The notes under the pieces were generated by a model. The model was not told the DNA's origin and made no database searches. It was given only the letters and a program-made list of their open reading frames with translations. Positions 13,622-21,742 of a stretch of 21,862 bases of DNA are shown here, piece after piece. This stretch comes from Rozella allomycis CSF55 (taxonomy: Eukaryota), in assembly GCA_000442015.1 (NCBI GenBank), contig KE561161.1, forward strand, positions 62,001 through 83,862, written 5' to 3'. Position numbers and translations under genes: made by a program. The first letter of the stretch is position 1, and each line of letters opens with the position of its first letter.

Positions 13622-15124
<1,503 letters not shown>

Positions 15125-18513: not shown

Positions 18514-20286
18514 ATGAAGTTTAATTTCGAAGATATAAGATCCGATGCCGGTTATGTTTTCTTGAAACCTCTGACAATGGGGAAATTGCCATTTGTATTG
18601 TTTATTGACGTTGATTACTTTCCGATACGCTATATTAGTATGAGTGTATTTTTCATAACACAGCTAAAAATGAATTGAATAACTTTTTTGAAGGCATCAA
18701 AGCGCTTTCGAAAGATCGCGAGTTATTTGACTTTATTATGACTTCAGAATATGAAATGTTAAGCTTAAATCAGATGTGGGATGCCTTCCACTGTAGGAAA
18801 ATCAAAGGGGAAGTTACATCTATATTTGAGAGTAATTATACATAAATCTACTAGTCAGAAAGAATAAATGAGTGTTGTAAGTGGGTAGAAAATCTGATGG
18901 TTATTGTAATCTCGGACAGGATTGTCATCAAGGACCTGCACAAAGAAATTAGCATTATATGGATTTGCTCTTCGGCAAATGAAAATCCAATTGGCGATTT
19001 TAAGATAGAAACATCAATGTTTCTAAGAAATTGTGGGTTAGGCAGGCTTATTCCTGATATCAAATACAACGAGCGATTTCAAAAAATATTAAAGCTGATA
19101 CTTATGGAAAAGTTATTGGATAAATTACACGACAGAAAATGGAACAAAGTCGTTAATTTTATCAGTAAATTTATTGGCCTATGTATTTAAGGTCAAAACT
19201 TTAAGGCTTTCTTAAAAGTGAATCCTTTAGACTGGCTAACTGATTCAATATCTTCAGAATTTTTAATTACTAGGGATGGTAAAATTGAACGGGGGCCGAA
19301 AATCCCCACGGAAATAACAAAGGTCTACCAAATATTGTGTGCAGCATTTTTTGATATTGGAATAACCGTTACAAAACTAGTTGAGCTTATAGAAGCGAAT
19401 TTAAATGTCTTTAAAGGTGTTGGTTTAAAGGATAAAGATGACATCGTCAACTTTCTGATTGAATGTCGATTAGTTAAGGACAGGAATGGGGTTTTAAATA
19501 GTTCCATTTTTCATGGGACAATAAAGGACCCAATTGCGAAAAGAATAGATGACAGTGATCTTGAATTAGTATTGTTGAGGTTTAGGAAAGTTCTCATAAG
19601 ACACATGGAGTTTCATATTGATGCTACAATAAGAGTAACAAGTGTAAATCTAATTTACACTTAGGTAGAAAAATTATTTGGCATTTTGTCAAATCTAATT
19701 GATGATGGTATCCTTCTTAATTCGCATGCATAATACAGGCATAATACCTGCTTATTCTAGAAATCTGTTTGTTGAGACATTGGAGCAAAAGGGATTTATC
19801 AAAAGTAGAGGTGGAAAACTAATTTCTTTGACTGAGTCCTTTTTGTCTAAGTATGAAGGTAATTATCTTTATCGCCAATAATATGTGGTGCCTAGCATGG
19901 CAAACACTACTTCACAAAATTCATTAGATGGCGAAGAACAAAAGGCTGGTGAAAATGTTGCAAAAAAGAAAACCAATTTCAAATCGATTAAAGAAAATCA
20001 AGTTGCTCCAAAAACAAAAGCAGAATCTAATTGTAACGTCGTGGTGAAAGATGTGATTGATGATGTTCCCGTCAAGAATATTCTGGATGATGTGTCCATT
20101 AAGAAGATTCTCGCGACATTGAAGTTTATGAAATTTTTTCATAAGAAGACAAGTTTTACATTTGATGAAGTCAAGAAACGTTATCTAAAAATGTTTAGTG
20201 GTTCCGAAAACGACGCCAATTCCAAATTTGACATGGCAGCTAGGCAAAAGATAATAACTGTAGTAGATAATAAAATAATCGTTTAA
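18514..20286 (+). CDS. Multi-exon hypothetical protein, possibly degenerate NYN-like domain plus winged-helix repeats
   Basis: Introns 18638-18663, 18832-18858, 19165-19191, 19635-19664, 19708-19738 and 19859-19885 (GT-TG; alternatively GT-AG 19851-19895) join ORFs 18897, 19218, 19699 and 19885 into one frame. The domain call is tentative. Confidence 0.65.
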
Positions 20287-21145: not shown

Positions 21146-21742
21146 TTATTGATGGGTTACCGTAAACAAGTCAATGTGGGAGTTCTTTGTCAGATCTGCA
21201 TCAGAAGAAAAATATTTCATAATCTTAAAGTCGTCATTAATATCAATAGGTGTGAATTCTTTCGAATTTCTAATATTTGAGTTGGCTCCTCTGGCTAGAA
21301 GGATTTTCACAACTTCGCCTGCACCATAGAGGGTAGCCAAATGCAATGCCTATATTTAGATTCCATTTATCGTACCTATGTTTTCGACATCAATATTTTA
21401 CTGTATTATTTCCACCAAAAGTAATGTCTAAATCGTCAGTGAATGATTTATCAATGATTTCTTTGGCTAGGTCATCCTGTCCCCATATAATTGCAGCGTG
21501 TAGGCCTGTGACTGAGCCTATGTACGCCCCAAGAAATTTATAAGCATCAAGTTCTATTTCGCCTTCATATTTGAAATCATTATGTCTGTATTTTATTTTC
21601 GCTAAATCTGGATGCTCAGTCAACATCCCCCTTACAATATCAGTCTGACCATTCTTAATTGCTTTAAAGTAATTCTTTGATTGAAATAGGGTTAAATTAC
21701 CTCAATTATCGAGAACGGTAACGATTTGGCGGGAGCTGACAT
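21146..21742 (-). CDS. Ankyrin-repeat protein
   Basis: FKAIKNGQTDIVRGML, TGLHAAIIWGQDDLAKEII, NT|ALHLATLYGAGEVVKILLARGAN, FTPID. Introns 21675-21700 and 21350-21401 (two abutting 26-nt units). Confidence 0.85.

Follow-up and report, generated by a model that had tools for sequence, protein, structure and literature searches.

A 52-nt intervening sequence in an ankyrin-repeat gene of Rozella allomycis CSF55 is well described as a pair of minimal introns, each complete, between which the exon has zero length, and this composition of two intron units is very probably not a product of chance. Judging from the arrangement of its splice signals, we put at about one half the probability that the 52 nt are removed mainly stepwise, as two units in succession. 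The element lies on the minus strand (21401-21350) of what we call the window, that is, the whole stretch of 21,862 nt analysed here (contig KE561161.1, positions 62,001 to 83,862).

The 52-nt element and its gene

Read on the minus strand, positions 21401-21350 consist of GTAAAATATTGATGTCGAAAACATAG^GTACGATAAATGGAATCTAAATATAG (^ marks a splice junction here and below), without any exon base between the units, and the local reading is TTT GGT GGA AAT AAT ACA ^GTAAAATATTGATGTCGAAAACATAG^GTACGATAAATGGAATCTAAATATAG^ GCA TTG CAT TTG GCT. The gene, all of it on this strand, starts with the ATG at 21742. Its first exon (21701-21742; 14 codons, MSAPAKSLPFSIIE) is followed by a 26-nt phase 0 intron (21675-21700; GTAATT...CAAAG), which is supported by the alignment of NYFKAIKNGQ, just 3' of it, with the FEAIK.G motif of homologues. 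Exon 2 (21402-21674; 91 codons), the translation of which ends in DLDITFGGNNT, leads into unit 1 (21376-21401), a complete 26-nt GT-AG intron that starts with GTAA and ends with ATAG; unit 2 (21350-21375), likewise a complete GT-AG intron of 26 nt, starts with GTAC and also ends with ATAG. Exon 3 (21146-21349) begins with ALHLATLYGAGEVVKILLARGANSNIRN and closes with the stop codon TAA at 21148-21146.

The 3' splice site of unit 1 directly abuts the 5' splice site of unit 2 (ACATAG^GTACGA, between 21376 and 21375), and excision of unit 1 gives the junction AATACA^GTACGA, which is a regenerated 5' splice site. The letters are exactly those quoted in the original prediction, which had described 26+26 nt with an internal TAG^GTAC (21401-21376 plus 21375-21350), and its statement about the reading frame was confirmed as well. 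With both units out, conserved ankyrin sequence is restored and the ORF is free of stops from 21742 to 21146 (172 codons), whereas excision of unit 1 alone leaves unit 2 to supply an in-frame TAA at its third codon; read-through into unit 1 meets an in-frame TGA as the fourth codon. Within the 52 nt, GT occurs only at positions 1, 14 and 27 and AG ends only at 26 and 52, so that the possible pairings are 1-26, 27-52, 1-52, 14-26 and 14-52. Because there are only these five, the tandem split is the sole two-step decomposition in which both parts measure at least 26 nt.

The product of the gene is a small, conserved ankyrin-repeat protein. Exon 3 matches the Pfam family Ank (PF00023) with 25.9 bits against a cut-off of 21.1 (E 1.1e-05), and the repeat consensus G-x-T-A-L-H-L-A runs across the junction. 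With exon 2 as the query, 64 representative homologues were obtained at E<=1e-3, the five with names among the ten that were looked up coming from Amoeboaphelidium, Jimgerdemannia, Cladochytrium and Furculomyces/Smittium; a second homologue search added Chytridium, Spizellomyces, Rhizophlyctis and Nowakowskiella at 49-54% identity. Over its length, the spliced ORF is 46-56% identical to chytrid and aphelid homologues. Among the 34 homologues inspected, all that extend over the junction show an ungapped G-(G/S/N)-N-T-A-L-H-L-A in the alignment: where the window has DLDITFGGNNT^ALHLA, they have D(L)DITFGGGNTALHLA, with neither gap nor insertion. Since the homologues are gap-free here, exactly 52 nt must leave the mRNA, to the base.

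This conservation also bears on the idea that the element is not a matter of splicing at all, and reflects instead an assembly error, a disabled gene or eliminated DNA comparable to the ~26-nt IES of ciliates. The window does contain other oddities that could be counted in its favour, namely an in-frame TAG near an N in a TPR gene and a septin intron without a frame-keeping AG. Nonetheless, we regard it as very improbable, given that the spliced ORF is intact and as similar to chytrid and aphelid proteins as stated above, that the halves of the element are not copies of each other (13/26 positions identical, which is background) and hence no duplication artefact, and that the host is a fungus with the standard code and no ciliate. 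The ciliate IES was rejected because long exons are open under the standard code, because a tree of S-adenosylhomocysteine hydrolase (SAHH) puts the window among fungi and because a window protein is 100% identical to one of R. allomycis. A myxozoan or dicyemid origin was considered and set aside as well, in view of the fungal homologues of the ankyrin gene, the SAHH tree and the R. allomycis identity. The SAHH fragment of the window has 82-87% identity to fungal and animal proteins, and the weakly resolved tree places it among early-diverging fungi with support of 88/87 for the fungal side.

As for the two oddities themselves, the septin gene (12437-12404, minus strand) has a donor GTAATA after IIQFKAR and no AG from which the conserved continuation could be read in frame; use of the AG at 34 nt or at 37 nt leads to a frameshift, and removal of 27 nt, GT...TG, would keep the frame. 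The explanation is either a 3' site of non-canonical type or an error of 1 nt in the assembly. In the TPR gene, which we take to resemble Ssn6/Cyc8, the in-frame TAG (4432-4430, minus strand) stands between MMIGRN and GFKI.VYRDSRNPAYW, with the only N of the window (4416) a few bases away, and there is no plausible intron that would take it out.

An intron between T and A, where the window pair is located, was found in no relative examined (34 homologous proteins and the metagenome loci). A metagenome scan for relatives of the ankyrin gene, based on an alignment of seven sequences, gave five loci at 46-52% identity, three of them intronless and transcript-like, and no close relative with short introns was among the five. 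Locus L003 (1877-2231) has two introns, one after PFG and the other after ALHL plus one base, which flank a 25-nt micro-exon, GGAAATAATACTGCATTACACCTTG, encoding GNNTALHL plus one base; the first of them is also present in locus L004 (564 onward). Among ORF-style proteins that continue into an intron, the first intron is seen in P0125, P0134, P0155 and P0196, and the second in P0128, P0145, P0180 and P0191. The window gene has neither of these flanking introns, and its own pair falls in the middle of the micro-exon: the first position lies 12 nt upstream of the pair, and the second 13 nt downstream. No simple route from the relatives' arrangement to that of the window is apparent. The default reading is that both old introns were lost and that a gain at a new site followed; it is tempting to speculate that one intron was gained initially and that another was then inserted at its AG^G boundary.

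Introns of the window and the midpoint of the element

The window is very compact, with ~16 genes in 21.9 kb, some of them only 31-67 nt from their neighbours, and a GC content of ~0.31-0.39. Gene models were made with a small dynamic-programming script and then corrected by eye and by homology, which resulted in 15 stop-free models with 44 GTA...AG introns. These curated introns measure 26 nt (16 introns), 27 nt (10), 28 nt (6), 29 nt (8), 30 nt (2) or 31 nt (2), and the 3' part of the thiolase gene has three more, one of 26 nt that begins with GTG and two of 28 and 29 nt. Leaving the 52-nt element aside, 47/47 verified introns are therefore 26-31 nt long, with a mode that coincides with the minimum of 26 nt and a sharp lower edge. 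The gene finder over-spliced once long introns were permitted, and its 'introns' of 58, 56, 34, 32, 24 and 23 nt were discarded by eye or by homology. In the literature we found no stated intron length distribution for Rozella or early fungi, although supplementary files might contain one.

The original prediction had called the element the only intron longer than 31 nt. This holds for the verified set, but the window also has a 45-nt GT...AG candidate (19851-19895, plus strand), which is spliced out in the public annotation of P0198, a protein identical to one encoded here. An exon at 19194-19634 (plus strand) is 100% identical, over 82% of its length, to the NCBI entry 'hypothetical protein ROZALSC1DRAFT_27496, partial' from R. 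allomycis CSF55. The candidate itself has an exon-like composition (GC 0.36, score -0.5) and an unusual C at position -4; its gene could instead end at the TAA at 19879-19881, with a new ORF from the ATG at 19897, and a protein atlas search with the ORF 3' of the candidate returned no result.

Splice signals are weak in the 44 curated introns. At the donor, A is the base following GTA in 30/44 and GTAC is present in 6/44; at the acceptor, position -4 is A or T in 42/44 and position -3 is A, T or C in 43/44. No branch-point motif is consistently placed in these introns, YTRAY occurring in 16/44 at scattered distances. In the thiolase gene, the conserved C-terminus demands a 26-nt intron, GTGCGC...CATAG, at 14853-14878 (plus strand), so that a GTA start is not universal in the window. 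An AG followed by an exon-initial GT is seen at three other intron ends (19664 and 19665, 19191 and 19192, 15064 and 15065, plus strand), and AG^GT alone is therefore not rare at intron ends here.

Both units of the element have the features of window introns, namely a length within 26-31 nt, a GTA start, an [A/T][A/C/T]AG end and an AT-rich interior. The GC content of each is 0.27, compared with 0.257+-0.071 in the 44 curated introns, and their composition scores (1.10 for unit 1 and 0.74 for unit 2) are within the range seen in true introns, though below its middle; the interquartile range for true introns is 0.57-5.07. Under a first-order model trained on the interiors of window introns, the probability of AG^GTA exactly at the midpoint (26 + 26) of a 52-mer is 4e-4, or ~4 per 10,000; it is 1.9e-3 when the element's own interior is shuffled, and ~5e-3 for a central AG^GTA if any split from 20 to 32 is allowed. 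With both strands of the window counted, the full double-unit pattern occurs twice where 0.30 would be expected; the copy other than the element itself is antisense to a MYST acetyltransferase coding exon.

Two origins of the element were considered and rejected. Tandem duplication of one intron is not indicated by the match between the halves, which compares with 12.25+-2.27 in 120 pairs of 26-nt introns, and against a repeat or mobile element stands the finding that no stretch of more than 12 nt of the 52-mer recurs elsewhere in the window. No notable RNA fold that would shorten the effective distance was found within the 52 nt (z -0.83), and an Rfam search of the window gave 0 matches.

The same minimal pattern is also present in exons: curated coding sequence (14.9 kb of exon) contains 21 look-alikes of the form GTA...[AT][ACT]AG with a length of 26-31 nt, and the pattern by itself is thus insufficient for splicing. 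Selection against exonic look-alikes was not significant, as synonymous shuffles contained 27.3+-4.5 of them (fraction at or below the observed number, 0.092). Several AT-rich look-alikes of 3n length among the 21 may be real introns that are invisible to an ORF-based method. AT-rich GTA...AG stretches of 27 or 30 nt, without an in-frame stop, were noted inside modelled exons at 14529-14555 (plus strand) and 9484-9458 (minus strand), and further ones at 15253-15224 and 15448-15422 (minus strand); they belong to the thiolase gene, the MYST gene and one unknown gene. Those of the thiolase and MYST genes presumably break up otherwise conserved motifs, and they are probably real introns missed by ORF-based modelling.

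Modes of removal

If the 52 nt are taken as two ordinary, complete, minimum-length introns of the U2-type GT-AG class, placed head to tail with a zero-length exon, then each unit, with its standard signals and modal length, would be recognised as a separate intron. Since two spliceosomes can hardly be accommodated on 52 nt at the same time, removal would proceed by two successive standard splicing reactions. Should unit 1 be excised first, exon 2 would be joined to GTACGA and unit 2 would retain a working 5' site; should unit 2 leave first, unit 1 would retain the 3' site CATAG^GCA. Both orders would yield the identical mRNA, and the upstream-first order would be the likelier one during transcription. 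Counted from the first GT, the first AG is reached at precisely the modal intron length, the point where 16/44 curated introns end. As no branch motif is definable in the window introns, a branch site of unit 1's own cannot be demonstrated, and comparison lends no support to the central AG^GT, the T-A site being free of introns in the relatives examined. One RNA run, chosen by its label only, gave seven records with chance matches of 19-33 nt and one spurious joint.

Removal in one step, as a single 52-nt intron that uses the outer GT and AG and branches in its second half, is a possible if less favoured course. The central AG^GTA would then be an evolutionary leftover, either of an insertion beside an older intron or of two former introns, that is rarely or never used. 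We know of no upper limit to intron length for spliceosomes in general, so that a branch in unit 2 could suffice; CTAAAT, which unit 2 carries 5-6 nt before its end, could act as one, and unit 1 has no assignable branch motif. It also fits one-step removal that the machinery evidently ignores the 21 intron-like stretches in exons, and that the public annotation has a 45-nt intron in the neighbouring gene. Yet it would take some special cause for a first AG at the exact modal length to be skipped, the longest of the 47 verified introns has 31 nt, and the 45-nt candidate looks like exon in both GC and score.

It is improbable that the element serves as a regulated or error-prone switch, in which removal of a single unit would lead to a frameshift, an early stop and decay of the transcript, and the double intron would tune expression. 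Translation of the products of single-unit removal would indeed run into an in-frame stop after no more than 3-4 codons (TGA in unit 1, TAA in unit 2), but chance alone will place early stops in AT-rich sequence, and the double intron is not conserved in relatives.

Recursive splicing elsewhere and the idea of a length ruler

Were the pair spliced recursively, as the order of its signals suggests, it would be a miniature form, in a single instance, of the zero-length-exon recursion that is already documented. Accounts of such recursion concern BOT1 of C. neoformans, where a 375-nt intron is made up of 210 + 165 nt (10.1101/224170), and a 336-nt intron of SPNCRNA.445 in S. pombe (10.1101/226894). 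The resemblance is that an annotated single intron is in fact two, with a 3' site abutting a 5' site and two standard reactions, and that the hosts are, as here, fungi with short introns. However, those cases were shown by spliceosome profiling, junctions and branches, whereas the window pair is a reading of the DNA sequence, and their lengths of 375 and 336 nt contrast with 26 + 26 nt here, each unit being at the genome minimum.

Ratchet-point recursive splicing is established for very long introns in Drosophila and vertebrates (10.1101/006163). There too, a juxtaposed AG^GT regenerates the 5' splice site after the first step and the exon has zero length, but the introns concerned span tens of kilobases, whereas the whole element is 52 nt long here. 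At vertebrate recursive sites, a recursive exon is defined by a downstream 5' site.

Stwintrons of filamentous fungi and Lipomyces are described as being removed by consecutive U2 reactions in which intron definition picks the smallest unit first, the internal intron lying within the donor, branch or acceptor element of an external intron that comes into being only after the first excision (PMC7138796). What they share with the window element is a complex intervening sequence and consecutive U2 splicing reactions. Stwintrons are nested, however, whereas the window units are both complete in the primary transcript and lie side by side; neither interrupts a splice signal of the other, and the parallel with stwintrons drawn in the original prediction does not hold.

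Ultrashort introns are known in ciliates, microsporidia and dicyemids, to which a 2026 paper adds myxobolid myxozoans (PMC13644364). Such genomes have in common with the window a sharp length distribution below ~30 nt and weak splice-site motifs, but the portion of that paper's text available to us makes no mention of tandem or double-length introns or of Rozella. Our literature search on abutting or tandem introns and 0-nt exons likewise turned up no report of tandem minimal introns in short-intron organisms.

A spliceosome limited to about 26-31 nt, as had also been proposed, was not established, as the proposal rests on ~50 introns and the window may contain one of 45 nt. Narrow lengths in ~50 introns are equally explained by a deletion bias together with a minimum length, and a ceiling is therefore unsupported. 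It is doubtful, in our view, that intron length is gauged by the spliceosome of Rozella, with a ruler of ~26-31 nt, and that longer introns are concatenated minimal units removed recursively. If such a ruler did exist, intron lengths would be quantised (26-31 nt, then 52-62 nt); double units would be unable to shrink gradually, lengths of 32-51 nt being unspliceable; and a pair located amid the relatives' 25-nt micro-exon would record the reorganisation of intron pairs under a length constraint.

Should the 52 nt be removed in one step, the pair would be an evolutionary curiosity, and the narrow length distribution would then be no mechanical ceiling. The Rozella lineage is the sister group of microsporidia, whose few mini-introns splice poorly. 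If stepwise removal is true, the pair would be the smallest substrate of recursive splicing known, and it would offer a natural test of a length ruler against sequence motifs in the recognition of very short introns.
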